Below, in pieces: positions 23,596-36,937 of a stretch of 64,000 bases of DNA. The notes under the pieces were generated by a model, which was not told the origin of the DNA, ran no database searches, and saw nothing but the letters and a program-made list of their open reading frames with translations. This stretch comes from an uncultured Actinomycetota bacterium (GTDB taxonomy: Bacteria > Actinomycetota > Humimicrobiia > Humimicrobiales > Humimicrobiaceae): contig CAZTUA010000012.1 of assembly GCA_964616545.1 (NCBI GenBank), positions 18,185-82,184 on the forward strand, in the 5' to 3' direction. How positions within the stretch are numbered: the stretch's first letter is position 1; each line of letters opens with the position of its first letter. A program made the translations under genes and the position numbers.

Positions 23596-24771
23596 ATGAA
23601 AAAAGCTTTATATATTGATTGTTTTTCAGGAATAAGCGGTGATATGATGGTAGGCGCACTTCTTGACCTCGGGATTGATATTATTTTTTTAAGGAATGAA
23701 TTAAAAAAAATTGATATTACCGGATACAGCATAACATGCAGAGAAGTAAAAGCCGGACCTATAAAAGCGAAAAAGTTTAATGTGGAAGTAACTGCGTCCC
23801 AGCCGGATAGAAATTACGAAAATATCAAAAAAATAATCGGGGAAAGCAAGTTAAAAACGGCTATTAAGAAAATGTCACTAAATATTTTCAGGCTGATTGC
23901 AGAAGCAGAATCGGCGGTACATGACTGTGAAGCAGACAGGGTGCATTTTCACGAAGTAGGAGCGGTAGATTCCATTATCGATATTGTAAGCACCGCCGTT
24001 TGTATAAATAAATTAAAGATTGAATCCTTTTACAGCAGTAAAATTCCGGTTGGAAGCGGATTTGTAGATAGCTCGCATGGAAGATTACCCGTACCGGCAC
24101 CTGCAACTGTTGAAATTTTAAAGGATGTACCGGTCTATGGGGGCGGCTTTGATTTTGAAGTGACAACTCCCACGGGCGCGGCAATAGTAAAAACTTTTAC
24201 GAAAAGTTTTAGCGGCCTTCCTTATATGGAGATTGATAAGACCGGATATGGAGCAGGGAATAATAGAGGGGGAGAAACTCCCAATGTTTTAAGACTTTTA
24301 GGGGGAATTATTGACGATGAATATGGCCTGAGAGAAGAGAAACTTATAATGCTTTCTGCAAATATTGATGACAGCACTCCTGAGATTATAGGTTATCTTA
24401 TGGAAAGACTATTTAAAAAAGGTGTCCTGGATGCATGGGTAGAATCTATCTATATGAAAAAAAACAGGCCCGCTTTTAAGGTAAGTGCGCTCTGCAGTGA
24501 AGAGTCGGAAAAGGACATAGTAAATATAATTTTGCTCGAATCGACAACGCTCGGCATAAGACGCGAAAAAGTAGAAAGATATTCGATAGAAAGAAAATTA
24601 AAAACTGTCCGGCTGCCTTACGGAGAGGTTAAAGTAAAAGTTGGCATCCTGAAAGGCAGAGAAGTAAACATTGCGCCTGAATTTGGGTCCTGCAGAAAGG
24701 TGGCAGAGGCGACGGGGAAGACACTTAAGGAAGTATATCACGACACTTTTTTATTTTTTTCAAAAAGATAG
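23596..24771 (+). CDS. larC: Nickel pincer cofactor Ni insertase LarC
   Basis: DCFSGISGDM, HFHEVGAVDSI, HGRLPVPAPAT, TPTGAA, MKKNRP. Confidence 0.94.
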   Translation: MKKALYIDCFSGISGDMMVGALLDLGIDIIFLRNELKKIDITGYSITCREVKAGPIKAKKFNVEVTASQPDRNYENIKKIIGESKLKTAIKKMSLNIFRLIAEAESAVHDCEADRVHFHEVGAVDSIIDIVSTAVCINKLKIESFYSSKIPVGSGFVDSSHGRLPVPAPATVEILKDVPVYGGGFDFEVTTPTGAAIVKTFTKSFSGLPYMEIDKTGYGAGNNRGGETPNVLRLLGGIIDDEYGLREEKLIMLSANIDDSTPEIIGYLMERLFKKGVLDAWVESIYMKKNRPAFKVSALCSEESEKDIVNIILLESTTLGIRREKVERYSIERKLKTVRLPYGEVKVKVGILKGREVNIAPEFGSCRKVAEATGKTLKEVYHDTFLFFSKR

Positions 24772-25841
24772 TATTTTAATATTTCCTGCAGTACGGCAAC
24801 GGTTGGTACAGCAATCAAAAGTCCCCAGAAACCAAGTAATACACTGCCTACCATTAAAGAAAAAATTGTAACTCCGGGGTGCACTCCTATCTGATACTTC
24901 AGGATATTTGGGGAAATCAAATAAGCGTCCAGCCATTGAATGGCTATGAAGAACACGATTACAAGTAAAGCTGTAAGGGGTGAAATAAAAAGCGCGGCAA
25001 GTGCAGCCGGTATTGCCCCTATTACAGGACCTACAATAGGAATAATATCAAATATTCCAGCCGCAAAGCCAAGAAGTATTGCAAGATCTACTTTCAATAT
25101 GAGCAGTACGATTGTGCACAGTATTCCCACAACAATTGCTATTAATATTCTTACCCTGAGATACTTCCCGACAATTTTATTGATTATATCCAGTATAATA
25201 TTGGCATGAGTTTTGCATTTCCCGGGTAAAGCTTTTAAAAATATATTTCTAATTTTATCCGCGTGCATAAGGATGTATACACCCAGGAGCGGCACAACTA
25301 TAAAGTAGAGGACAACGTTGACTACCGAACGGCCAAATGTAGTTGCTCTCTGGAAAAAATCAATTTCTCCAAGGTTAAGCCTTCCTATAATAAACTGGGT
25401 GATACCATTAGCGTCTATCGGCATGATTTTTTTGCCGATTACATTTTCAATACTTTTGACAATAGGGCTCCTGCTTAAAAAGTCATTTACAACAACGATA
25501 AAATTGCTCATGTATGACGGTAATTTATTTATGAATATCCTGAACTGGTCAAAAACTATGGGTATGATAAAGAAGAGCATTACAAAAATAATTCCCAGAA
25601 AAATTATATAAACTATGGCAACCGCAAAAATTTTACGCATTTTTTTCTGCAGGAGAGCCACAAAGGGGCTCAGGAGATAGGCAATAATTATGGATATAAT
25701 AAGAGGGATAATAGCCGACCTTATCGTATATATGGTGTAAAAGAAAAGTGCAATGATTAAAAGTAAGCCGATTATTGACCAGCAGAATATCCCGATATTT
25801 TTTATTTTGCTATTGCCATTTAATAATTTTTTAAGTCTCAT
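24738..25841 (-). CDS. AI-2E family transporter (PerM-like)
   Basis: AYLLSP, IPIVGPVIG, IQWLD.YLISP, GVHP, GLLIAVP. Confidence 0.88.
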   Translation of the reverse strand: MRLKKLLNGNSKIKNIGIFCWSIIGLLLIIALFFYTIYTIRSAIIPLIISIIIAYLLSPFVALLQKKMRKIFAVAIVYIIFLGIIFVMLFFIIPIVFDQFRIFINKLPSYMSNFIVVVNDFLSRSPIVKSIENVIGKKIMPIDANGITQFIIGRLNLGEIDFFQRATTFGRSVVNVVLYFIVVPLLGVYILMHADKIRNIFLKALPGKCKTHANIILDIINKIVGKYLRVRILIAIVVGILCTIVLLILKVDLAILLGFAAGIFDIIPIVGPVIGAIPAALAALFISPLTALLVIVFFIAIQWLDAYLISPNILKYQIGVHPGVTIFSLMVGSVLLGFWGLLIAVPTVAVLQEILKYYLFEKNKKVS

Positions 25842-26094
25842 CTTGACTCATTATAATATATTTTTTAAAAAATTATAATTTATTAGGTCAACTAAACGCC
25901 ACTAATTTAAAAATTAAATTGCACAGGAACTTAAATCTAAAATAGCAGCAGAACCGGCAAAAATACACACCTTCTGAATCCTTAAACCTTAAGACGTTGA
26001 TTTTGACTTATTGGTTTATTTAAAATAAAATATTTATTCTCTGGAGTATTTATCTTTTATAAAAATCAACCAGCCGGAAAGGGGCGGAACACCT

Positions 26095-28506
26095 ATGAAG
26101 TATGGTTATTTTAATGACAGAGATAAGGAGTATGTTATTACAAATCCCAGAACACCGGTTAAGTGGATTAATTACATTGGAACCCTGGATTTTGGCGGTT
26201 TTGTGGACCATACAGGCGGCGCATTAATCTGTAAAGGTGACCCGACCTTAAACCGTATTGTAAAATATATACAGCAGATGCCATCCTCGGAATTTAAAGG
26301 TGAGACTCTATACCTGCGGTTCAGGCAGGAGGATGGTTATAAAGTGTTTTCGCCTTTCTTTGTTCCCACACTGGATCCATATGATTTGTATGAATGTCAT
26401 GTAGGTCTTGGTTATAGTCGCATAATATCAGAATTTTACGGACTACGGACAGAGTGCACAATATTTGTCCCCATAAATGACGGAATAGAAATACGCGAGG
26501 TAAAAATAACCAATAAGACAGGAAAAGAGCTGGATATTGATGCAATATGTGTCGTTGAGTATTCACACTTTAATGCCGTGAGACAGTTTGATAATGCTGA
26601 CTGGGCCCCCCAGACGATGCAATCCGAATGCATAAGAGAAAAAGACGGGCTGCTGACCCTGACGCAATATGCTTTTATGCGAAGAGAAACCAATATAAAT
26701 TTTCTAACATCCAATCATCCGGTCTCTTCTTTTGAATCGGACAGGAAACGATTTCTCGGAGACAATGAATACGGAAGCTGGGCAAACCCGCTCTCACTCC
26801 AGAAGGATGAGCTGGAAAGTTATGAAGCACGCAGGGGTGATAATGTAGGCATACTGATGCACCATCTCGGGAACTTTAAGCCGGGAGAAGAAAAAAGTTT
26901 CATTGCTCAGCTGGGGCAGGAGCAGAGTTTTAAAAAGGCATATCCTGTTATTGAAAAATATAGAAAACCTGAATCTATAAAAAGTGCGCTGGGTGAAATT
27001 AAAAGTTTCTGGGATGAATTTTTATCTATAATGCAGGTACAAACACCGGACCCGAATATGAACAGTATGTTAAATATCCAGAATCCCAGGCAGTGTTTTA
27101 TCACCAAGAACTGGTCACGCTATCTTTCATATTACCAGCTTGGACTGGGTACCCGCGGCATTGGTACCCGCGACACTTCGCAGGATATTATGGGGGTAAT
27201 AAGTCACATCCCCCGGGATGCAAAGGAACTGTTAAAAAAGCTTATGATGGTTCAGAGAAAAAATGGGAGTGCCATGCACGGCTTTAATCCTTTAAGCATG
27301 GAAGCATCAACAGGAGAGACTTATGAAATGCCGGACCGCCCGCAGTATTATGGAGATGACCATCTCTGGATCGTTCTTGCAGTAACTGCATATTTAAAAG
27401 AAACGGGAAATATGGATTTTCTAAATGAAGAGATTCCCTATTACGAGAAGAACAGGGAAGGGAAACCCGAAGAGAGCGGGACGGTAATGGATCACATGAA
27501 GAGAGCACTTGATTTTACTAAAAATGATAAAGGAAATCATGGCCTGCCGCTTCTGGGTTTTGCAGACTGGAACGATACTGTTAATTTAAGGACAGGAGCG
27601 GAATCATTATTTAATACACACCTTTATGGAAAAGGGCTTCTTGAGATGATTGAACTCTGTAAATATGCAGGTGATGAAGAATTGGCCGGGGTTTATCAGC
27701 AAGAATATAACAGTGTAAAAGAGGTGTTTAACCGGATATGCTGGGATGGCGAATGGTATATCCGGTATTTTGATTCCGACGGCACCCCGCTCGGTTCACA
27801 AAAAAATGAGCAGGGAAAAATATACTTGAATGCCCAATCCTGGGCAGTAATATCGCGGATGGCTACCGGTAATAGGGCAGAAAAAGCACTGGATTCCGTG
27901 AACAGGTTACTAAACACTTCCAGGGGGATAAAAATTAGCTGGCCCGGTTTCAATGGCTATGACCCTACAAAAGGCGGCATTACCACTTACCCTCCAGGAA
28001 CCAAGGAGAACGGCGGAATATTTTTGCATACCAATCCCTGGGCAGTAATTGCCGAAACCATAATGGGGAATGGCGACCGTGCATACGAGTATTATAATCA
28101 GATAAATCCGGCTGCAAAAAATGATATTATATACGAGTATGAATGCGAGCCCTATGTTTATGCCCAGAATATACTCAGTGACGAGCATCCTCAGTTTGGC
28201 CTCGGGAGAAATAGCTGGTTAACAGGTGCAGCTTCATGGATGTACCAGGCGGGAACAGAGTTCGTGCTGGGTATACGGCCTGCATACCGCGGTCTTGAAA
28301 TCGACCCCTGTATTCCCGGAGAATGGAGCGGTTTTAAAGTCATGCGGAAGTTTAGAAATGCGGTGTATGATATAGAAGTAAAGAACCCGCAGAATGTTAA
28401 CAGGGGAATATCAGTCATTAAAGTGGACGGCGGGGAAATAACCGGCAACATAGTTCCTGTTTTTAAAGACGGCGGCACCCACTCAGTGGAAGTGGTAATG
28501 GGCTAG
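26095..28506 (+). CDS. GH94 glycoside phosphorylase (cellobiose/chitobiose phosphorylase family)
   Basis: MKYGYF..REYVI-type N-terminus, GTRDTSQD, ADWND catalytic motif, ENGGIF, SWLTGAA. Confidence 0.92.
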   Translation: MKYGYFNDRDKEYVITNPRTPVKWINYIGTLDFGGFVDHTGGALICKGDPTLNRIVKYIQQMPSSEFKGETLYLRFRQEDGYKVFSPFFVPTLDPYDLYECHVGLGYSRIISEFYGLRTECTIFVPINDGIEIREVKITNKTGKELDIDAICVVEYSHFNAVRQFDNADWAPQTMQSECIREKDGLLTLTQYAFMRRETNINFLTSNHPVSSFESDRKRFLGDNEYGSWANPLSLQKDELESYEARRGDNVGILMHHLGNFKPGEEKSFIAQLGQEQSFKKAYPVIEKYRKPESIKSALGEIKSFWDEFLSIMQVQTPDPNMNSMLNIQNPRQCFITKNWSRYLSYYQLGLGTRGIGTRDTSQDIMGVISHIPRDAKELLKKLMMVQRKNGSAMHGFNPLSMEASTGETYEMPDRPQYYGDDHLWIVLAVTAYLKETGNMDFLNEEIPYYEKNREGKPEESGTVMDHMKRALDFTKNDKGNHGLPLLGFADWNDTVNLRTGAESLFNTHLYGKGLLEMIELCKYAGDEELAGVYQQEYNSVKEVFNRICWDGEWYIRYFDSDGTPLGSQKNEQGKIYLNAQSWAVISRMATGNRAEKALDSVNRLLNTSRGIKISWPGFNGYDPTKGGITTYPPGTKENGGIFLHTNPWAVIAETIMGNGDRAYEYYNQINPAAKNDIIYEYECEPYVYAQNILSDEHPQFGLGRNSWLTGAASWMYQAGTEFVLGIRPAYRGLEIDPCIPGEWSGFKVMRKFRNAVYDIEVKNPQNVNRGISVIKVDGGEITGNIVPVFKDGGTHSVEVVMG

Positions 28507-28745
28507 CTGCTAATTTGCCGCAATGTGATTCATTTATAAAATTATATACCGCACCTATATTTTATATTCCTGAATCGGGCCTTCAGGTTTAAAACCGGGA
28601 AGGAAAGGTAAAATACATAAGATGCACCGAATTCCCGCCAGGGTGGATATAACGCATCTACGTATTGATTGAAGTGGCATAATAATTGTGATAAAGTTTA
28701 AACTCAAAAATAAAAAACAGGAAAGTATATAAACAGGAAATTATA

Positions 28746-29153
28746 ATGCCGGAAGAATCTATAGCTGCTTATTTTAATAACATCTTGGCTCTTACAACTT
28801 TTATTCTGGTTCTGGCATTTATATTTTCCCTGATATTTCTTATATCACGTATATTAACGGGCCGGAAAAAGCCCGGAAGTGGTAATTTCGGCGGTATTGA
28901 GGTAGAAGAAGCTGCACGGTTTGATAAACGGAATGTCATATCTGATTATAAAGAGGATCCCAACCGGCAGAAAAATATTTTTATTCTGGCAATTATTTTT
29001 ATAATAATAATTTATTTTATATTGCTTGCTCTCTGTATTTTTAATTTTAGCAGAAATCCTTCGGCAAATTTAAATCTATTTTTAATTGTTGGAATAATAT
29101 TTCACCTTATATTAATTACAATATACGTTATCAGATCTAAAATTATAGGTTAG
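28746..29153 (+). CDS. NuoA-like subunit (highly diverged)
   Basis: Three TM helices with a long first loop; first gene before nuoB; YECG loop motif absent. Confidence 0.65.
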   Translation: MPEESIAAYFNNILALTTFILVLAFIFSLIFLISRILTGRKKPGSGNFGGIEVEEAARFDKRNVISDYKEDPNRQKNIFILAIIFIIIIYFILLALCIFNFSRNPSANLNLFLIVGIIFHLILITIYVIRSKIIG

Positions 29154-29164
29154 GGGTTAATTGA

Positions 29165-29560
29165 ATGCCTTTTAATAACAGGAGCAATTTAAATATAATG
29201 GTTACGGGGTTTGGCTGCTGTAAACAGGAAATATTTGCGGCACAGGGAGCACTTTATGATATCCAGAGGTTTGGTATAAATTTTGTCAGTACACCTGAAG
29301 ATGCTGACCTGCTGGTCGTTCAGGGCTTCTATAATAAAGAGGGTATAATCAGGGTTATAAATATTTATGAAAAGATGAACCACCCAAAAGGAATAATTGC
29401 AGTAGGAAGCTGTGTTTTAAACCGGAACTTACTTGATCCAAAAAGTGAATTAATGGACAGATTCAGAGACAGCGTAAAAATAATCATGCATGTACCGGGA
29501 TGTCCGCCACGGCCCGAAGCATTTATGTATGCAGTGTTAAGAATTCTAAATGAAAATTAA
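29165..29560 (+). CDS. nuoB: NuoB-like Fe-S (N2) subunit
   Basis: GCC tandem Cys, DIQRFG, ADLLVVQG, AVGSC, VPGCPPRPEA. Confidence 0.88.
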   Translation: MPFNNRSNLNIMVTGFGCCKQEIFAAQGALYDIQRFGINFVSTPEDADLLVVQGFYNKEGIIRVINIYEKMNHPKGIIAVGSCVLNRNLLDPKSELMDRFRDSVKIIMHVPGCPPRPEAFMYAVLRILNEN

Positions 29561-29605
29561 AGGCAGCATAATAGGAACAAAAATGAAATTTAAATATTAA
29601 TAAAA

Positions 29606-31105
29606 ATGATTGATGATATTTATAATAAAATCTATCCTTCATCCAGGTCTGTATATGGGGAAGAAATAGAAAGGAACCTGGAGTATATTCTGAGGGATGA
29701 GATAAAAAAAATTTCCCGAATAGGCTTCGATTTACTGGTAGAGATATCGCCGGAGAGACTTTATACGGTTATAGAGAAGCTGAAAGAAAACTCACAGCTT
29801 GAGATAAATAATTTTCATGGAATTAATACTTATAAAAATGAAAAAGGACGTTTTTTGCTGATTAACCTGAAATCAGCTACGGGCGATATATCTGTTCTGT
29901 TAAAAATGGAAGTGTCGGATGAAGAGCCGGGAAAAAACTATAAAGAATCCATAGACATCTTAAAAAAATTTTATAAGGCTTCAGCTTTTTATGGACCTGT
30001 GGAGAAAATAGCCACCGGTAATTACAATATCAGAATTACACCCGGGATCCTTGACGGCCTGGACTGTTTTGACCTGAATATTTATGCGGAAGAGGATGAA
30101 GTTAAAGATGCCCATATTAATACAGGTATAAGCAGGATTGCGGATGATGAATTTTATAAGGATATGAGCATTCATAATCTTATAGCTTATATAAGCAGAT
30201 TTGACTGGAAGGCCGGCGTGTTTCCTGAAGTCTGCCTTTGCAGTGCCTTTGAAAAATTACTGCAATTGAAGTTGCCCGGGAAAGCTCAGTACACAAGGAT
30301 GCTCCTCTGCGAATTATATAGAGTATCTAACCATATTTATTTTATTTCAAATATATGCAATATTCTACAGTATGATATTGCATATAATCTCTGCCTTCTG
30401 GAGAGAGAAAAGATTCTAAGAATTATAGAAACAATTACAGGCTCCAGAGTTGCCCCTAATTTTATAAGAATAGGTGGAGTGCGCAGGGATATAGAAGGAG
30501 AGGTAATATCAGGAATAAGGAAAAAACTTCCGCTTATATTTAAAAATATAAACAGGATAGAAAAAATAATGATGAATGACCCCCTTGTAATCGAGAGACT
30601 GAAGGATACAGGAACAGTACCTAAAGAAATTGCTCTGGAGTATGGAGTAACCGGGCCCAATCTCAGGGCTTCTGGAATCAGGTATGACCTGCGGAAAGAT
30701 AAAGACTTTATTTCATATAAAGACCTGTCATTTCTTGTACCTGTGGGAAGAGTGGGAGATTGCCTGGACAGGGTTCTTGTCAGGTTTATTGAAATTTTCC
30801 AGTCTCTTAAATTAATAAACCAGATTACCAGTAACTTTCCGCGGGGAGCACATATAAAAAAAATAAACCTGTCTAATCTGGAGTTCCGGCCGGAAATAAT
30901 TTCTCAGGATATTGAATGCCCGCATGGAATTTTTAAAATTTACATGGAAGTGGGCAAAAGAAACATAGAGTCGCTTGTGATAAAAGGTCCGTCTATAAGC
31001 AGTCTTATCCTTGGAGAAGAAATAATTAAAGGCAGCAGCATAGAAGATGTTGAATTGATTTTAATGAGCCTTGATATAAGCCCGGGAGAAATAATAAGTA
31101 CATAA
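29606..31105 (+). CDS. NuoC/NuoD-like fusion (diverged, no NiFe motifs)
   Basis: ELYRVSNH, ITGSR...IRIGGV, YGVTGPNLRASG..YDLRK, GDCLDR, SLDISPGE; short NuoC-like N-terminus. Confidence 0.85.
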   Translation: MIDDIYNKIYPSSRSVYGEEIERNLEYILRDEIKKISRIGFDLLVEISPERLYTVIEKLKENSQLEINNFHGINTYKNEKGRFLLINLKSATGDISVLLKMEVSDEEPGKNYKESIDILKKFYKASAFYGPVEKIATGNYNIRITPGILDGLDCFDLNIYAEEDEVKDAHINTGISRIADDEFYKDMSIHNLIAYISRFDWKAGVFPEVCLCSAFEKLLQLKLPGKAQYTRMLLCELYRVSNHIYFISNICNILQYDIAYNLCLLEREKILRIIETITGSRVAPNFIRIGGVRRDIEGEVISGIRKKLPLIFKNINRIEKIMMNDPLVIERLKDTGTVPKEIALEYGVTGPNLRASGIRYDLRKDKDFISYKDLSFLVPVGRVGDCLDRVLVRFIEIFQSLKLINQITSNFPRGAHIKKINLSNLEFRPEIISQDIECPHGIFKIYMEVGKRNIESLVIKGPSISSLILGEEIIKGSSIEDVELILMSLDISPGEIIST

Positions 31106-31115
31106 AAGGATACCA

Positions 31116-32051
31116 GTGTTAATTATATTAAGAAAAATTATTTATATTTTAATAATATTAGCCCTGAATTTGTATTTGTACGAGTATATAAGCAACAAAT
31201 TCACTGCCCGGATGGAGCTGAGAAGGGGCTACAGGGTAACAAGAGCAGCAGGTATAGGATTTCCGATGATTAGATTTTTTAAATTCATTTCTACTGACAG
31301 CAAAATCACCGCATGGACGTTTTTTATCTTTTTGCTTTCTTTTCTTATGTGGAGTACTGTTCCGCTGACTCCGAACCTGATTCTGGTTGAAAGCGATAGC
31401 AGCCTTTTAATTGCAGTTTCTTTGTATATAGGGCTTACAAGTGTATTGATTTTTAATTCAGCGGGGTCTTCTTACAGGATAATCTTCAGTGAAACAGTTA
31501 AAAAATTGATGATTATATTATCCTTTATGGTTCCCTTATTGCTGGGTATTGTAAGTATTGTTCTGGTAAATAAAACATTGAGCTTAAGGGAGATTGTAGA
31601 CTCCCAGTATAAATACTGGAACATAATATTGCAGCCGCTGGGGTTCTTTACGGTTTTTGCATCAACATTATTTCAATTGAAGCTTCTGGGCATGAGCAGG
31701 AAAAATTATATATCAACCGGAGCTTATACAGGCAGGGAAGGGAAAGGATTTGTTAAAGCAATTGAAAAACTTCCGGCTTATATGATTGTTTTTTTCTTAA
31801 TTATAATTATGAATATTCTTTATCTTGGAGGATGGCAGGACCTTTATATAATACGGGGCGAGATAATGCTTGCGGTAAAATTTTATTTTATCTTTTTTAT
31901 ATTATTATTGATGGATAAAATTATCTGCAGAATTGATAATTATAAAATGCTGGTAAAAATTAACTGGAAATTTTTAATTCCGGTTTCACTTGTAAATTTT
32001 ATAATAACACTCGGGTTTTTCGTGATGAGAGACATTTATAATTTAGTTTAA
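31116..32051 (+). CDS. NuoH-like membrane subunit (diverged)
   Basis: KFTARMELRRG, LSLREIVDSQ..WNIILQPLGF, YLGGW, WKFLIPVSLVN. Confidence 0.82.
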   Translation: MLIILRKIIYILIILALNLYLYEYISNKFTARMELRRGYRVTRAAGIGFPMIRFFKFISTDSKITAWTFFIFLLSFLMWSTVPLTPNLILVESDSSLLIAVSLYIGLTSVLIFNSAGSSYRIIFSETVKKLMIILSFMVPLLLGIVSIVLVNKTLSLREIVDSQYKYWNIILQPLGFFTVFASTLFQLKLLGMSRKNYISTGAYTGREGKGFVKAIEKLPAYMIVFFLIIIMNILYLGGWQDLYIIRGEIMLAVKFYFIFFILLLMDKIICRIDNYKMLVKINWKFLIPVSLVNFIITLGFFVMRDIYNLV

Positions 32052-32078
32052 ATTTTATTATCAGGGTATCTATTAAAA

Positions 32079-32501
32079 ATGTTAAGGATTATAAAAAACT
32101 TTTTTATTGTTCTGGGGAATATGTTCAGGAAACCCAGAACCGTCGTTTACCCAAAAGAAAAAATAATAATTCCTGAAGGAAGCAGAGGGGTAATACATTT
32201 AAAACTGGACCCCGACTCGCTGGATATTATTTGCAATGCATGCGGGCTCTGCAGTAAAATTTGTCCACAGAATTGCATAGAGGTTAAGAAGAGGGTGGAG
32301 AGAAGCGGCAAAGTAATTCTTGAAGATTTTATTCTGGATTTAAACAAATGTATTTTTTGCGGCAATTGTGTTGAATTTTGTGATTTTAATGCAATAGATA
32401 TGTCATACCAGTACCAGCTGGCAGACTTCAGGAGGAAAAATTTAAAATTGGGGAAAAATGAATTAATAAAACCATCAAGCACGATAAGAGATTTCTGGTA
32501 A
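32079..32501 (+). CDS. nuoI: NuoI-like 2x[4Fe-4S] subunit
   Basis: TVVYP, CNACGLCSKICP and CIFCGNCVEFC. Confidence 0.9.
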   Translation: MLRIIKNFFIVLGNMFRKPRTVVYPKEKIIIPEGSRGVIHLKLDPDSLDIICNACGLCSKICPQNCIEVKKRVERSGKVILEDFILDLNKCIFCGNCVEFCDFNAIDMSYQYQLADFRRKNLKLGKNELIKPSSTIRDFW

Positions 32502-32508
32502 AATAAAT

Positions 32509-33051
32509 ATGTCATACGGAAGTCAGTTGACAACAATAATAATACACTATACAGGCATTACAGGCTTGATGCTGTGCAGTCTGCTCTCCCTTTTTCTGGC
32601 CAATAAAAAAAAGAAAATGCTGTTTTTGTTCCTTTCATTTATATTCGGGGGAATACTGTATTTCGTAAATTACTCCGGTATCCTGGTTTTTATAATTGGG
32701 ATTATAATGATATTCTTTTTTATATTGCTATATTTGTTTGTTTTCCAGCTGGAGCTTTTCGGAAATGATATAGAGGCTGGAACCGATAATAAGCCAGATC
32801 AATCAAAAAAGAAGGAAATCATTACCATAATTACAGCCCTTTTATTTTGTTCGGCTATCGGGTATTTCCTATATGTATACACATCCAGATTTTTAAGAGA
32901 TGCAGCAATAAACGAGAGTATCCTGATTACCACTCTGAGTGATATTAGCAGTCAGTTATCTGTTGATTACAGCCTGGTTATAATAATTCTGGCTGCTTCA
33001 TTATTTATATCATCTATATGGTTAATTATTATTAAAATGGAGAAAAAATGA
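32509..33051 (+). CDS. NuoJ-like membrane subunit (diverged)
   Basis: Five TM segments, position between nuoI and nuoK, ILLYLFVFQL segment. Confidence 0.65.
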   Translation: MSYGSQLTTIIIHYTGITGLMLCSLLSLFLANKKKKMLFLFLSFIFGGILYFVNYSGILVFIIGIIMIFFFILLYLFVFQLELFGNDIEAGTDNKPDQSKKKEIITIITALLFCSAIGYFLYVYTSRFLRDAAINESILITTLSDISSQLSVDYSLVIIILAASLFISSIWLIIIKMEKK

Positions 33052-33395
33052 ATTTTCAGTTAATTATATATATTAATCTTTTATTTTTTTTAATGGGAAT
33101 TTTCGGACTCCTGTATAGCAGGAATATTATATCAGTATTTGTTTCCCTGCAATTTATTATAATTTCAGCCATCCTGAATTTTTTAAGTTTTTCAAGGTTT
33201 CTCTACCAGCGGTTGTTATGGGATAAGATATTTATAATTGTAGGAGTTACGGTTATATATTTTATAATGTTTTGCCTTATTTATTATATTTATTCAAAAA
33301 GGGATCTCCCGGACAGGAAAATTTTTTACAGAGACTTTAAAATATTCAGAATGACAGTAAGCGATTGGTGGGGCGAGGACAGGGATAATTTTTAA
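33048..33395 (+). CDS. NuoK-like membrane subunit (diverged)
   Basis: GIFGLLYSRNIISVFVSLQ...LNFLSFSRF; ATGA overlap with the upstream gene. Confidence 0.75.
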   Translation: MNFQLIIYINLLFFLMGIFGLLYSRNIISVFVSLQFIIISAILNFLSFSRFLYQRLLWDKIFIIVGVTVIYFIMFCLIYYIYSKRDLPDRKIFYRDFKIFRMTVSDWWGEDRDNF

Positions 33396-33396
33396 A

Positions 33397-34887
33397 ATGG
33401 ACTTTCTATTATATATTAATGAAAAAATAAACCCTTTTCAGAGCATAGCTATATTAGCAATTGCAATTCTTATTCTGTCATTTTTTGCGATTTCTAAAAG
33501 CAGAACCGTAAAAATATGTCTTATAACGATGGTTTCGCTTTTACTTGCGCTGGCCTTTTTCCTGAATATCTATGCTTATATTTCCCGCGGTAATTTTTCT
33601 AATTTCCTCCTGTTTTTTGGGAATGTCCAGATGGTAATGGCAGGTATCATGATATTCTGTGCATTGAATCTGTTATTTTTTATCTACATTTATCATAAAG
33701 ATAATGATAATTTTATTAAAATACTAATGATTTTTATATTTTCTGTTATCTGTGCTTTATTTGTAATTATAAGCAGAAATTTTCTTTTGATATTTACGAG
33801 TCTTTCTCTATTTATATTAACTGTATTCCAGCTGGTGTCGGCTTTTAATTCAAAGAATGATAAAACCGGTATATATGTACTTGAATATTTTCTGAGGCCG
33901 TTAATAACTATTATCTTATTTTTTTTCGCTTTTTCATTGCTTCTGGGCGCAACCGATTTCAAGGATTTCAACCAGATTTTACAGTCAGAATATATTACAA
34001 ACCCGCTGACTGTTTTGAGCCTGGTTGTTTTTGGAGTTGCTCTTTATCAGTATTTTTTCCTGTTCCCCTTTCAGGGTCCGTATATAAAAATGCTTAAAAG
34101 AAGCGACCCTGCAGCCAATGCAGCTGTATGGTTCTTATATTTCCCTGTCGGCATATTTATGTTTCTGAAACTGAGTAGCGTATATAATTATTTTACAGAA
34201 AAAAGCAATGCATACCTCTCAGTTTTTTTAATAATTATAACCTTCGTCTGCCTGGCTGCAGGAAATATCGGGGCAATTAAAACGAAAAGTGTGAGAAGAA
34301 TAATATCATTTTTATTTTTATTTTTTATTGGCTTCTTTTTACTCAATGTTTCAATGTTTTCTGCCGGAATTATAACCAGGTTTTTAATGGATTTATTTAA
34401 TTTTATAAATATCTTTCTGATATTGTTCAGTTTTATGCCTTTATACAGTATTTTTAGCACTATCGAAAAACAAACGGGGACTGATCATATAAGAGGAATA
34501 AAAGGGCTGGGAAGGATTAATAAATATGCAGGTGTAAACTTAATAATAATATTTATACCGTGGACTGTATTTATTTATCATATAGAACCTTTTATAAAAT
34601 ATTTTAATGCTGATTTTTTACAGATGGGAGCATTGAATATGGCTTTATTGATACTAATAATGGCTGCCCTGATATTTCTCTTATTGAATATAACCAGGAT
34701 TATTATACAGATTTTTAAAAAACCGGCAGCAGAGACTGTGCAAAAAGCAGTTCTTCCCAGGTTTTTATATATTTACATTACTTTTTATTCCTTTATTATA
34801 ATAGTTGCCGTAGTTCTGGGTATCCTTAGAATAATAAATATTGATGTACCTTTTACCGGTTTTATGATAGAAGAGTTTAATTTTTAA
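33397..34887 (+). CDS. NuoN-like antiporter-type subunit (diverged)
   Basis: 496 aa, about 14 TM segments, LLLGATDF, FPFQ, GNIGAIKTKSVRRIISF, IKGLGR. Confidence 0.78.
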   Translation: MDFLLYINEKINPFQSIAILAIAILILSFFAISKSRTVKICLITMVSLLLALAFFLNIYAYISRGNFSNFLLFFGNVQMVMAGIMIFCALNLLFFIYIYHKDNDNFIKILMIFIFSVICALFVIISRNFLLIFTSLSLFILTVFQLVSAFNSKNDKTGIYVLEYFLRPLITIILFFFAFSLLLGATDFKDFNQILQSEYITNPLTVLSLVVFGVALYQYFFLFPFQGPYIKMLKRSDPAANAAVWFLYFPVGIFMFLKLSSVYNYFTEKSNAYLSVFLIIITFVCLAAGNIGAIKTKSVRRIISFLFLFFIGFFLLNVSMFSAGIITRFLMDLFNFINIFLILFSFMPLYSIFSTIEKQTGTDHIRGIKGLGRINKYAGVNLIIIFIPWTVFIYHIEPFIKYFNADFLQMGALNMALLILIMAALIFLLLNITRIIIQIFKKPAAETVQKAVLPRFLYIYITFYSFIIIVAVVLGILRIINIDVPFTGFMIEEFNF

Positions 34888-34916
34888 AATATCTTCCTTT
34901 TTACTTCTTTATAACT

Positions 34917-35696
34917 TTGGAAAACTTAGAAGACAATAAAAAAAGATTTAATATCAAGCACTTCCTGATAATTATACTGGTCCTTATTATCATAATGGCA
35001 ATTGTTATAAGCATAAATGAATTTTCCTTTAAAAAAGAATACAGGCCTGCTACTGCGCTAGCGGAAGAGCTTCCGAGGTTCAGGCTGATTGATATGGATA
35101 ACACGGGTATCACCGGGGATATGGACAGAGACGGAATAAATGACCAGAAAGATATTTTACTGGGTGCCAGGAAGCAGCTTGAGAAACCTGCCAGAAATAT
35201 AATTCTGGAGGAAAATGAAACAAATTATTACCTGGGAGGGGACCCTCCCGAAGAGCTGGCCATAAGCACAGATATTATAGCCAGGGCTTTTATGGAAGCA
35301 GGTTTTGATTTAAGGGAGCTTTTGTATGAAGACTTAAAAGAGAACTTTGACCAGTATCCGGTAAAAAAAATATGGGGGCAGACTGTTTGCGACCCGGATA
35401 TAGATTACAGGAGAATCCAGAATCTGGAAGTCTTTTTTATGAGGAACGCAAAACACCTGGATATTATATTTAAGGATTCGGATATCAGCAATCTGGAAAA
35501 ATGGCTTCCGGGGGATGTTGTTTTTTTCGACATGAGCGGTGACGGATATACCGATAATGCCGGGATTGTTTCGGACAGCACAACAAGGGACGGCGTTCCC
35601 AGGGTAATTTATAACTATATTGATCCCGGGTATACGGTTGAGAGAGATATCCTGAGAGACGAAATCATAACGGGCCATTACAGGTTTCCGCGGTAA
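34917..35696 (+). CDS. DUF1287 (YijF-like) membrane-anchored protein
   Basis: N-terminal TM; YYLGGDPP...STDIIARA, DIDYRRIQNL..F, WLPGDVVFF, GHYRF. Confidence 0.75.
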   Translation: MENLEDNKKRFNIKHFLIIILVLIIIMAIVISINEFSFKKEYRPATALAEELPRFRLIDMDNTGITGDMDRDGINDQKDILLGARKQLEKPARNIILEENETNYYLGGDPPEELAISTDIIARAFMEAGFDLRELLYEDLKENFDQYPVKKIWGQTVCDPDIDYRRIQNLEVFFMRNAKHLDIIFKDSDISNLEKWLPGDVVFFDMSGDGYTDNAGIVSDSTTRDGVPRVIYNYIDPGYTVERDILRDEIITGHYRFPR

Positions 35697-35935
35697 ATTC
35701 AGCTGTCATTTATTTGTTCAATAAGAAAGCAGCGTATCCAGAAATCAGAATTACACAAGTCTATGGTTTATGCAATGCTGTCTGAAGATAATGCAGAATT
35801 AATTAATTCTATAAAAATATGAATAAATGTATTAAAATATCTGATTAACAGGAATACCAGGCGCTGGTTCTGACGATTATTTTAATTATTTATAGAAAAC
35901 TGGAAACTAAATTGTAATAAATATATAGAATAAAA

Positions 35936-36937
35936 ATGTCAAAAGAACTAAAAATAAGTCTTTACAAAAAGGCAATAATTATAATTATTGCCTTTTTAAT
36001 CTTAATCTCATCTCCGGTTATTTTACCAGGGAAAGTGCATGCTATAACCTTAAAAGAGCTTGGTAATTCAATCGCGCGGTTGAGCCAGGATGAAGAAAAT
36101 TTACTGGAAGAAATACTTGCCTCTGAAGCCGAAGTTGAAAATAAAAGGAACAAACTCCAGTCATTAAACGAGGAGTTTCAGATACTTGAGATAGAGCTTA
36201 ATAAGCTTAATGAAATCAGGGAAGAATTGATGGTAAGTATTGAGAGTAAAAAGGATGACCTCAGGGAAAAAATTATTTTTTCATACAAGTATGCAAATGA
36301 TGACATTGCAAATCTTATAATTACTGCCGGGAATTTGAATGAAGTTATAAACAATCTCTATATTTTTAAAAGTATCATGGAAAGCCAGGCGGACCTGATT
36401 GAGCAGCTACGTTTTGAAAAAGAAGAATATGACAGAATCTCCCGGAAATCTGAGGAAAAGAAGAAAGAAATTGAAGAGACCAGAGATATAATTGAGGAAG
36501 AGGAAAAGCTGCTTCTAAAGAGCATTGAGGAAAACAAAATTCTTCTTGAAAGGGTAAAAAGCGAAAAAGGGGAGATTCAGGGGCTCTTAAGCGAAATAAA
36601 AAAAAGAATAGCAATGGTTCAGCCCCCCGGGCTTACCCTGACGGGAGAATGGGATATGGTTGCTACGGCATACTATGCTCACGGAAAGGGCGGCAATGAT
36701 ATAAATGGCAACGGTATAACGGCGATAGGACTTAGAGCGAGAAAAGGAATAGTTGCCGTTGACCCCAGGGTTATTCCTCTGGGAACAAAACTTTATATAC
36801 CCGGTTATGGAGAAGCGCTGGCAGCAGATACCGGCGGGTGGATAAAGGGAAATAGGATTGACCTATGTTTTGAAACTCTGCCGGAATGTTACAGATATGG
36901 CAGAAGGAAGATAAAAATATATCTTGTTGAAAAATAA
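35936..36937 (+). CDS. Secreted coiled-coil + 3D-domain peptidoglycan-associated protein
   Basis: Signal peptide, long coiled coil, ATAY...VAVDPRVIPLGT...AADTGG.IKGNRIDL. Confidence 0.9.
   Translation: MSKELKISLYKKAIIIIIAFLILISSPVILPGKVHAITLKELGNSIARLSQDEENLLEEILASEAEVENKRNKLQSLNEEFQILEIELNKLNEIREELMVSIESKKDDLREKIIFSYKYANDDIANLIITAGNLNEVINNLYIFKSIMESQADLIEQLRFEKEEYDRISRKSEEKKKEIEETRDIIEEEEKLLLKSIEENKILLERVKSEKGEIQGLLSEIKKRIAMVQPPGLTLTGEWDMVATAYYAHGKGGNDINGNGITAIGLRARKGIVAVDPRVIPLGTKLYIPGYGEALAADTGGWIKGNRIDLCFETLPECYRYGRRKIKIYLVEK

Follow-up and report, generated by a model that had tools for sequence, protein, structure and literature searches.

A divergent nuo operon of Candidatus Humimicrobiaceae: a complex I relative with an intact iron-sulfur wire and a probable loss of ion pumping

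The window analyzed here is a stretch of 64,000 nucleotides from an uncultured Actinomycetota bacterium (contig CAZTUA010000012.1). At positions 28746-34887 of its forward strand, eight closely packed open reading frames form a nuo-type operon with the order A, B, C/D fusion, H, I, J, K and N-like. Nine canonical complex I subunits have their equivalents in these eight genes, C and D being fused. Genes for NuoL, NuoM and NuoEFG were not found in this operon, in which a single N-like gene follows K. The iron-sulfur wire of the encoded complex is intact and the residues for pumping and for quinone reduction are nearly all gone, which suggests that electrons are probably passed on without ion pumping. 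The complex is probably an enzyme that still transfers electrons but has ceased to be either a redox-driven ion pump or a canonical quinone reductase. The explanation to which we lean is a redox-active, non-pumping and membrane-anchored module, which would be fed by ferredoxin and would hand its electrons to a putative non-quinone acceptor, with the membrane arm serving as a scaffold.

A preliminary description of positions 31116-34887, covering H, I, J, K and the N-like gene, had proposed that the charged axis for proton translocation is erased across H, J, K and N, and that such a coordinated loss points to a change of function. In alignments with E. coli and with solved chains, all the losses it had named in K, N, H and J were seen. 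The loss across four genes is real but was understated, as the acidic residues of NuoA (D79/E81), the His and Asp of the quinone site and the NuoL and NuoM subunits are gone as well. The proposed change of function is borne out by losses throughout the family, by purifying selection and by a graded intermediate in Hakubella; non-pumping itself we infer.

Iron-sulfur ligands, coupling charges and the quinone site

All twelve iron-sulfur cysteines of the clusters N2, N6a and N6b are conserved. The NuoB-like protein (29165-29560, 131 amino acids), although shortened at its N-terminus, keeps the four N2 ligands, of which C19, C83 and C113 never vary and C18 occurs in at least 90% of the sequences. 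In the NuoI-like 2x[4Fe-4S] ferredoxin subunit (32079-32501, 140 amino acids) the eight cysteines C52, C55, C58, C62, C91, C94, C97 and C101 are invariant among 18 family rows and E. coli. The D domain of the NuoC/NuoD fusion (29606-31105, 499 amino acids) has kept its ELxRIxxH motif with R239 and H243, and the surroundings of N2 are strictly conserved as well. The iron-sulfur chain is the most constrained part of the complex.

As laid out in PMC10212512, the central charged axis of complex I consists of the glutamates that ND1, ND3, ND6 and ND4L contribute to the E-channel and of the antiporter residues GluTM5, LysTM7, LysTM8 and LysTM12 (TM, transmembrane helix), and in one current model described there NuoL is the exit for all protons. 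In the operon of the window all charges tested in the E-channel and along the antiporter axis are absent, with the exception of the glutamate in the EYSG motif of NuoH. Nuo operons of many phyla were used as canonical controls. In the NuoK-like protein (33048-33395, 115 amino acids) Glu36 is replaced by Gln35, because SLQF aligns with S[IL]ELL of solved NdhE and NuoK chains. This column reads Gln in 17 and His in one of 18 family sequences; none of the 18 has an Asp or Glu in TM3, and Glu72 is absent. Of the 32 control NuoK proteins, all carry E36 and 31 carry E72.

The single antiporter-fold subunit, the NuoN-like protein (33397-34887, 496 amino acids), has Ser137 (FTSLSL) in place of E. coli E133, Tyr219 (YQYFFLFP) in place of K217 and Gln226 in place of H224. 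K247 aligns with the uncharged stretch WFLYFPVG, and the motif with K395, the TM12 lysine, is deleted. Across 27 family rows, composed of 7 locus sequences and 20 full-length database representatives, the TM5 Glu, the TM7 Lys and the TM8 Lys are each found in none; at the TM12 position, 16 rows have Arg or Lys, 9 have a deletion and 2 have Gly or Glu. The former axis columns of the family are variable or aromatic, with no conserved polar residue. Among the 15 next-best matches outside the family, 13 have all four charges. In two basal genera, the N-like protein (L026:7277-9229 and L024:7350-9275) contains long low-complexity loop insertions, Asn/Ser-rich or of about 90 residues, which extend it to approximately 640-650 amino acids.

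In the NuoH-like protein (31116-32051, 311 amino acids) E. coli Glu36 is replaced by Ser26 and Glu157 of the SYE motif by Met138. The acidic TM5-6 loop, R.PFD..EAESEL in the preliminary description, has lost Arg209, Asp213 and E.E.EL, and of that loop just the EYSG glutamate (E208) is left. E36, E157, R209, D213, E218 and R286 are each present in 41 of 42 control NuoH proteins, E228 and E241 in all 42; the single exceptions among the K and H controls most probably correspond to the paralogue of Hakubella (see below). One member of the family (genome G021, L026:4845-5777) has a Glu at the Glu157 position (SFEIP), which is hydrophobic in the other 17; either retention or reversion would account for it. 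The NuoJ-like protein (32509-33051, 180 amino acids) has no VYAGA motif, and E. coli Tyr59, found in 35 of 35 controls, falls near Met67 in an alignment of low confidence (hhalign 92% for the whole protein). The acidic residue in TM2 (E. coli Asp79/Glu81) is missing from the NuoA-like protein (28746-29153, 135 amino acids), again in a low-confidence alignment; the controls have D79 in 21 and E81 in 22 of 22 cases.

Compensating charges were searched for by hydropathy. In A, J, K and N there is no acidic or basic position with at least 80% conservation that lies more than three residues inside a hydrophobic segment. NuoH has new conserved charges at K189 and D/E267-K/R268, and K255 is likewise conserved. 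The structural motifs listed in the preliminary description are indeed present and conserved in the family, namely YLGGW (236-240) and WKFLIP (284-289) of NuoH and GNIGA (288-292) of the N-like protein; NuoH also keeps VNSQ..WN..QP.GF. The membrane arm had been suggested to be an anchor or to conduct something else. An anchor fits the data better and conduction of another species worse, as A, J, K and N have no buried conserved charge and the axis of N is variable or aromatic.

The quinone site is altered as well. In the NuoD domain of the window its His is replaced by Leu152 (within LDGLD), its Tyr by Trp201 and its Asp by Ile. These positions read L/F/M, W/Y and I/V/A in nine of nine family rows; the Tyr is kept in 8 of 17 family rows, all basal, and Trp is found in the clade of the window. 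The His-Asp pair of NuoCD is described as the source of the substrate protons (PMC10212512). The β1-β2 loop, ITPGILDGLDCFD, contains no His, and the C-terminus, SLDISPGEIIST, is of the complex I type (SLDISPGE). A reading as NiFe hydrogenase was rejected, as neither ITPGILDGLDCFD nor SLDISPGEIIST contains a CxxC and the four cysteine ligands of a NiFe site are absent. The E-x-x-(K/R)-G loop has become ECPHG, in which E437, C438, P439 and G441 are invariant and H440 is present in at least 90% of the sequences. Conservation of ECPHG at a former active-site loop makes this look like a maintained catalytic pocket.

The genome from which the window derives has a single NuoD-type gene. No PF00361 protein, and hence no canonical antiporter-like subunit, was found in it by a search that was positive in 13 of 14 genomes as a control, and UbiA, cytochrome bd and NrfD gave no match. 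UbiA was not found in any of the four searched genomes of the genus, host included, and MqnA of the futalosine pathway gave weak matches only, in 3 of 41 genomes. The host encodes PFOR, RnfD, A/V-type ATPase subunits, an FeFe hydrogenase beside a NuoF-like gene and large subunits of NiFe hydrogenases. Four PF01512 matches lie away from the operon, one of them on the same stretch as rnfD (contig C27) and another just upstream of the FeFe hydrogenase (contig C44). Judging from this gene content, the host metabolism is ferredoxin-centered and fermentative, and, as far as an assembly of 93.7% completeness can tell, there is no indication of a quinone pool.

In the mechanism which we propose, ferredoxin reduced by PFOR would feed the NuoI end, by analogy with other complexes that have no NuoEFG. 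Electrons would run along N6a, N6b and N2 and would exit at the rebuilt NuoD pocket with its Asp-rich β1-β2 loop, Trp/Tyr201 and Cys-Pro-His. The acceptor would be something other than a self-made prenylquinone, and the A/J/K/N membrane arm would mainly act as scaffold and anchor.

Genes of the operon and their neighborhood

Homology to complex I subunits is secure for most of the operon genes. Pfam matches were obtained for the NuoB-like protein (PF01058, 60.6 bits), the NuoD domain (PF00346, 185.6 bits), the NuoH-like protein (PF00146, 81.6 bits), the NuoI-like protein and, barely, the NuoK-like protein (PF00420, 28.5 bits with a cut-off of 26.1). The A-, J- and N-like proteins had no Pfam match at E ≤ 0.001, and for A and J there was no NCBIfam match either. 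All NCBIfam matches of the operon proteins stay under the curated cut-offs, with 100.1 versus 116 bits for NuoB (NF005012), 85.6 versus 305 for NuoH, 108.9 versus 113.05 for NuoI (TIGR01971) and 34.9 versus 332.6 for NuoN (TIGR01770).

The family profile of H matched solved NuoH and NdhA chains down to 5.8e-22 and that of N matched NuoN chains at 7.9e-16 and 1.8e-13; the D profile found NdhH (1.6e-60), MbsL (8.2e-56), Mbh (9.3e-45) and HycE of FHL (7.6e-29) in the PDB. Comparison with canonical profiles by hhalign gave 99.9% for H, 92.2% for J, 92.0% for K and merely 45% for A, and it identified the N-terminal 135 residues of the C/D fusion as a truncated NuoC (91.6%), which is followed by the NuoD domain. 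The N-like protein was modeled with AlphaFold (pLDDT 87.9, pTM 0.89), and the best Foldseek matches of this confident model over the full length were E. coli NuoN and cyanobacterial NdhB, with TM scores of 0.73-0.80 at 13-15% identity. For the J-like protein an AF2 model of low confidence (pLDDT 62.6, pTM 0.43) predicts five helices, and Y154 and W171 are the only invariant residues of this protein. The NuoA-like protein has three hydrophobic segments and is encoded by the first operon gene in 17 of 17 loci. Overall, homology to the complex I superfamily and nuo gene order are present for B, C, D, H, I, J, K and N, and the assignment of NuoA is weak.

The K-like protein is extended at its C-terminus by about 25 residues (window 33330-33392), which end in a conserved W..GE/D; W107 and G109 do not vary, and positions 110-111 hold an E/D-D/E pair. 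Canonical NuoK has no such extension and K2 of Hakubella has a degenerate form; it may be a new docking element. A DUF1287 gene (34917-35696, forward strand, 259 amino acids, N-terminal membrane anchor) begins 29 bases 3' of the N-like gene. A DUF1287 gene follows the operon in the same orientation in 16 of 17 loci, the remaining locus stopping at a contig edge, and could be either a ninth member of the operon or merely inherited synteny. Upstream of the operon, most basal genera have LarC, the nickel-pincer cofactor insertase, and a divergently transcribed transporter of the AI-2E family (window 23596-28506; loci L014 and L019-L027). In the genus of the window and in L029 a gene of the GH94 cellobiose-phosphorylase type is located between these two genes and the operon, and in L017 this gene has shrunk to a fragment of 240 amino acids. 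The AT-rich DNA at 28400-36100 contains 43 promoter-like sites, compared to 35.6 +/- 6.1 in shuffled sequences, and 8 terminator-like sites, compared to 4.4 +/- 2.2, counts that carry little information at such a base composition.

Distribution, selection and the intermediate in Hakubella

The operon loci come from uncultured Actinomycetota of Ca. Humimicrobiaceae / Ca. Hydromicrobium. All 17 loci that cover the operon, from different genera, have the eight genes in the same order and with open frames; the CD gene of L012 is interrupted by a run of N only, and this locus was left out of the CD alignment. The ratio of nonsynonymous to synonymous substitution rates (dN/dS) was estimated by the Nei-Gojobori method for three divergent pairs. 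It is lowest in B (0.07-0.08) and I (0.06-0.09) and lies at 0.09-0.17 in CD, H and K; N has 0.19-0.21, J has 0.14-0.27 and A has 0.24-0.35. In the near-identical pair L015-L017 the values are noisier and reach up to 0.55 for A. All 24 genomes sampled from the same GTDB family have the N-like gene, with 29-76% identity for full-length matches. A second family yielded weak matches of the canonical N type (21% identity) in two of two genomes, and the gene was found in none of 14 genomes from ten other families sampled. An exhaustive search of 1.84 billion representatives with the N profile returned 34 proteins at E ≤ 1e-30, and the scores then drop from 113.8 to at most 99 bits. Because of this gap and of the canonical charges in the full-length matches checked below it, the N-like family is small and sharply bounded. 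The operon represents a paralogue that is restricted to Ca. Humimicrobiia.

In the sister family, one genome (L030) carries a canonical nuoH-I-J-K-L-M-N set that is directly followed by A2-B2-C2-D2-H2-I2-J2-K2-N2. We refer to this second set as that of Candidatus Hakubella thermalkaliphila, a name taken from an N2 protein with 90% identity. The second cluster resembles the family in its gene order, in the single N-type subunit after K, in ECPHG, in the loss of His, Tyr and Asp from the quinone site and in the C-terminal extension of K; K-Glu72 and the TM8 and TM12 lysines of N are lost in it as well. It differs in that C and D are separate genes. Furthermore, it keeps what the family of the window has lost: K-Glu36, the TM5 Glu and TM7 Lys of N, Glu36/Arg and Arg286 of NuoH, and a score of N2 in PF00361. 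By its genes, the second cluster of Hakubella is a graded intermediate and the closest relative. In a quick IQ-TREE search, the family together with Hakubella D2 is split from 50 canonical NuoD proteins, among them the canonical NuoD of family genome G020, with an SH-aLRT of 99; given the long branches and the quick search, the placement of Hakubella D2 is provisional. Among 120 database matches to Hakubella D2 the His is kept in 116, the Tyr in 116 and the Asp in 117, and ECPHG occurs in only three, none of which has the His, the Tyr or the Asp. In the passages of the paper on the Hakubella lineage that deal with nuo, these genes are described as a H+-translocating NADH-quinone oxidoreductase, and the second cluster is not singled out there (PMC7325909).

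Two NuoD proteins from short contigs, P0235 and P0236, are 45-46% identical to Hakubella D2 and carry the ECPHG signature. Two NuoN-type proteins outside the family, P0043 and P0048, have Gln at the TM5 Glu position, and P0043 is also devoid of the Lys residues. From these four proteins, further partly neutralized complex I relatives may exist.

Within the family two grades can be distinguished. Basal genera have the Tyr and an Arg or Lys in TM12, and the clade of the window has Trp and an 11-residue deletion in TM12. Strong PF00361 matches (E <1e-50) were found in 13 of 41 family genomes sampled, and the one in G020 belongs to a complete canonical nuo operon (L031). In G041 a frame of the canonical NuoN type (G041:C1:34363-35187) is interrupted by four stops (three TGA, one TAA), and a canonical complex may be decaying in this genome while the divergent one persists. 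In the genus of the window, G008 encodes two strong PF00361 proteins of 494 and 628 amino acids (G008:C2:144327-146662), and UbiA is absent from this genome.

Alternative explanations and comparison with known systems

Several points weigh against the non-pumping, ferredoxin-fed module which we favor. Its ferredoxin donor is proposed by analogy, and its putative acceptor and its activity are proposed from genes. The burial test relied on the hydropathy of single proteins and not on the assembled complex in three dimensions. NuoH keeps or has gained conserved charges near the membrane (K189, K255, D/E267-K268 and E208), which could support some proton transfer. Basal members have the quinone-site Tyr, a basic TM12 residue and a UbiA-family gene in the genome, and some quinone-linked activity may persist in them. 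Finally, absences from a metagenome-assembled genome of such completeness are not proof.

An uncoupled, non-electrogenic ferredoxin:quinone oxidoreductase, which would use what is left of the quinone pocket to reduce, without pumping, a menaquinone-type carrier that the cell synthesizes or imports, appears rather unlikely to us. The tunnel motifs YLGGW, WKFLIP and VNSQ..WN..QP.GF of NuoH would suit such an enzyme, as would the Tyr of basal members and the UbiA-family gene, which occurs in 28 of 41 family genomes and in 7 of 8 Tyr-type genomes for which both data are at hand; 5 of 6 Trp-type genomes have none. The link between Tyr and UbiA is merely suggestive, however, because the Tyr and Trp groups are clades and phylogeny confounds it. 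Moreover, the His/Asp pair is gone in all family rows examined and in Hakubella D2, the Tyr has become Trp in the clade of the window, no UbiA was found in the searched genomes of the genus and no quinol user of the cytochrome bd or NrfD type in the host, and MqnA matches were weak and rare. Ion translocation by a non-canonical route, via K189 and D/E267-K268 of NuoH and polar Gln, Asn, Ser and Tyr residues in K and N, has a low probability in our view. Conserved polar residues do exist in transmembrane segments (S33, Q35, S40, N44 and Y71 of K; N128, N338, S388 and N431 of N), the model of the N-like protein retains the broken TM7 helix with its break at 220-226, and K and N have dN/dS values well below 1. 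Against this stand the loss of four antiporter charges and both NuoK glutamates, the variable or aromatic columns of N, the deletion of the TM12 element in the clade of the window and the absence of NuoL, the proposed sole proton exit (PMC10212512), from the genome as assembled.

A complex without turnover, which would serve in redox sensing, in assembly or as a membrane structure and would keep its clusters for stability or signaling, is improbable to a similar degree. No donor module or acceptor site is recognizable, and the catalytic residues of both NiFe and quinone enzymes are absent; however, the genes of the electron wire, B and I, are the most constrained (dN/dS 0.06-0.09), and ECPHG is strictly conserved at the former active-site loop. 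That the operon is a decaying relic or an artifact of assembly or annotation is hardly credible. NCBIfam scores below the cut-offs and three proteins without a Pfam match might suggest it, but the loci are intact in 17 of 17 cases, the N-like gene occurs in all 24 genomes, dN/dS stays below 0.36 in the divergent pairs and the N-like protein has a confidently predicted fold. On the first three of these grounds, a pseudogene reading was rejected. A more far-reaching version of the electron-transfer module, which we regard as speculative, would have the former NiFe/quinone pocket rebuilt into a new catalytic site from the ECPHG loop, the Asp-rich LDGLD loop and the aromatic residue at the old Tyr position, fed by the unchanged N2. 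Such a site would pass electrons to an acceptor other than a quinone or would hold a new metal or cofactor. Next to H+, sulfane sulfur and quinone, this would be a fourth chemistry within the superfamily of complex I, with the membrane arm as an electrically silent scaffold.

The operon is a natural, selection-kept counterpart of hand-built complex I mutants, with the coupling charges neutralized, two pump subunits removed and the iron-sulfur wire left in place. Together, Hakubella and the basal members make up a graded series that reveals in which order coupling elements can be lost. This raises the questions of what an A/H/J/K/N scaffold does without its charges and whether further chemistry is to be found in the pocket of the superfamily. 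Metabolic reconstructions are affected as well: in the account of PMC7325909, the nuo genes of these anaerobic Actinomycetota appear as an H+-pumping NADH:quinone oxidoreductase, and for the cluster of this uncultured anaerobic actinobacterium that label is probably wrong and should be corrected.

A complex of the type found in the window was not described in the literature that we searched, supplementary tables lying outside that search. When it is compared with proton-pumping Nuo, the L/M/N set, the NuoEFG module, the quinone site, the E-channel, the antiporter axis and scores above the curated cut-offs are all missing, and the iron-sulfur ligands are present. Cyanobacterial and chloroplast NDH-1 and bacterial Nuo11 (11 subunits, without NuoEFG) lack the NADH module as the operon does, and NdhH, NdhA and NdhE are the best structure matches of D, H and K, with NdhB among the top folds for N. 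For NDH-1, ferredoxin is described as the electron donor. However, NDH-1 and Nuo11 keep L/M/N-type pumps, the E-channel carboxylates and the quinone-site His and Tyr, whereas the window has one charge-less N and a rewired site.

MBS and MBH of Pyrococcus belong to the same superfamily, have a non-quinone acceptor and include with MbsL one of the best matches of D. MBS is presented as an example of how the pocket of the superfamily is able to change its chemistry (PMC8165549). Unlike the operon, which has no Mrp module and ends its NuoD in SLDISPGE, these enzymes contain Mrp-type modules and vestigial or full NiFe cysteines. An assignment as MBS/Mbx sulfane reductase was rejected, as the host genome has no PF00361 protein and A, J, K and N are the only small membrane subunits. 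Group 4 hydrogenases of the Ech/FHL type share the single antiporter-like subunit with the window. They carry a NiFe site, of which the window has none, and the match to HycE is far weaker; Ech and FHL enzymes are not known to contain NuoA/J/K-type subunits. The Ehr group of Marreiros et al. 2013 is said to comprise relatives of complex I and hydrogenases without NiFe and quinone-site residues, and the operon has a nuo-type set of subunits and nuo-type best matches. By its genes, the complex encoded in the window would best be described as a stripped-down complex I without the EFG module.

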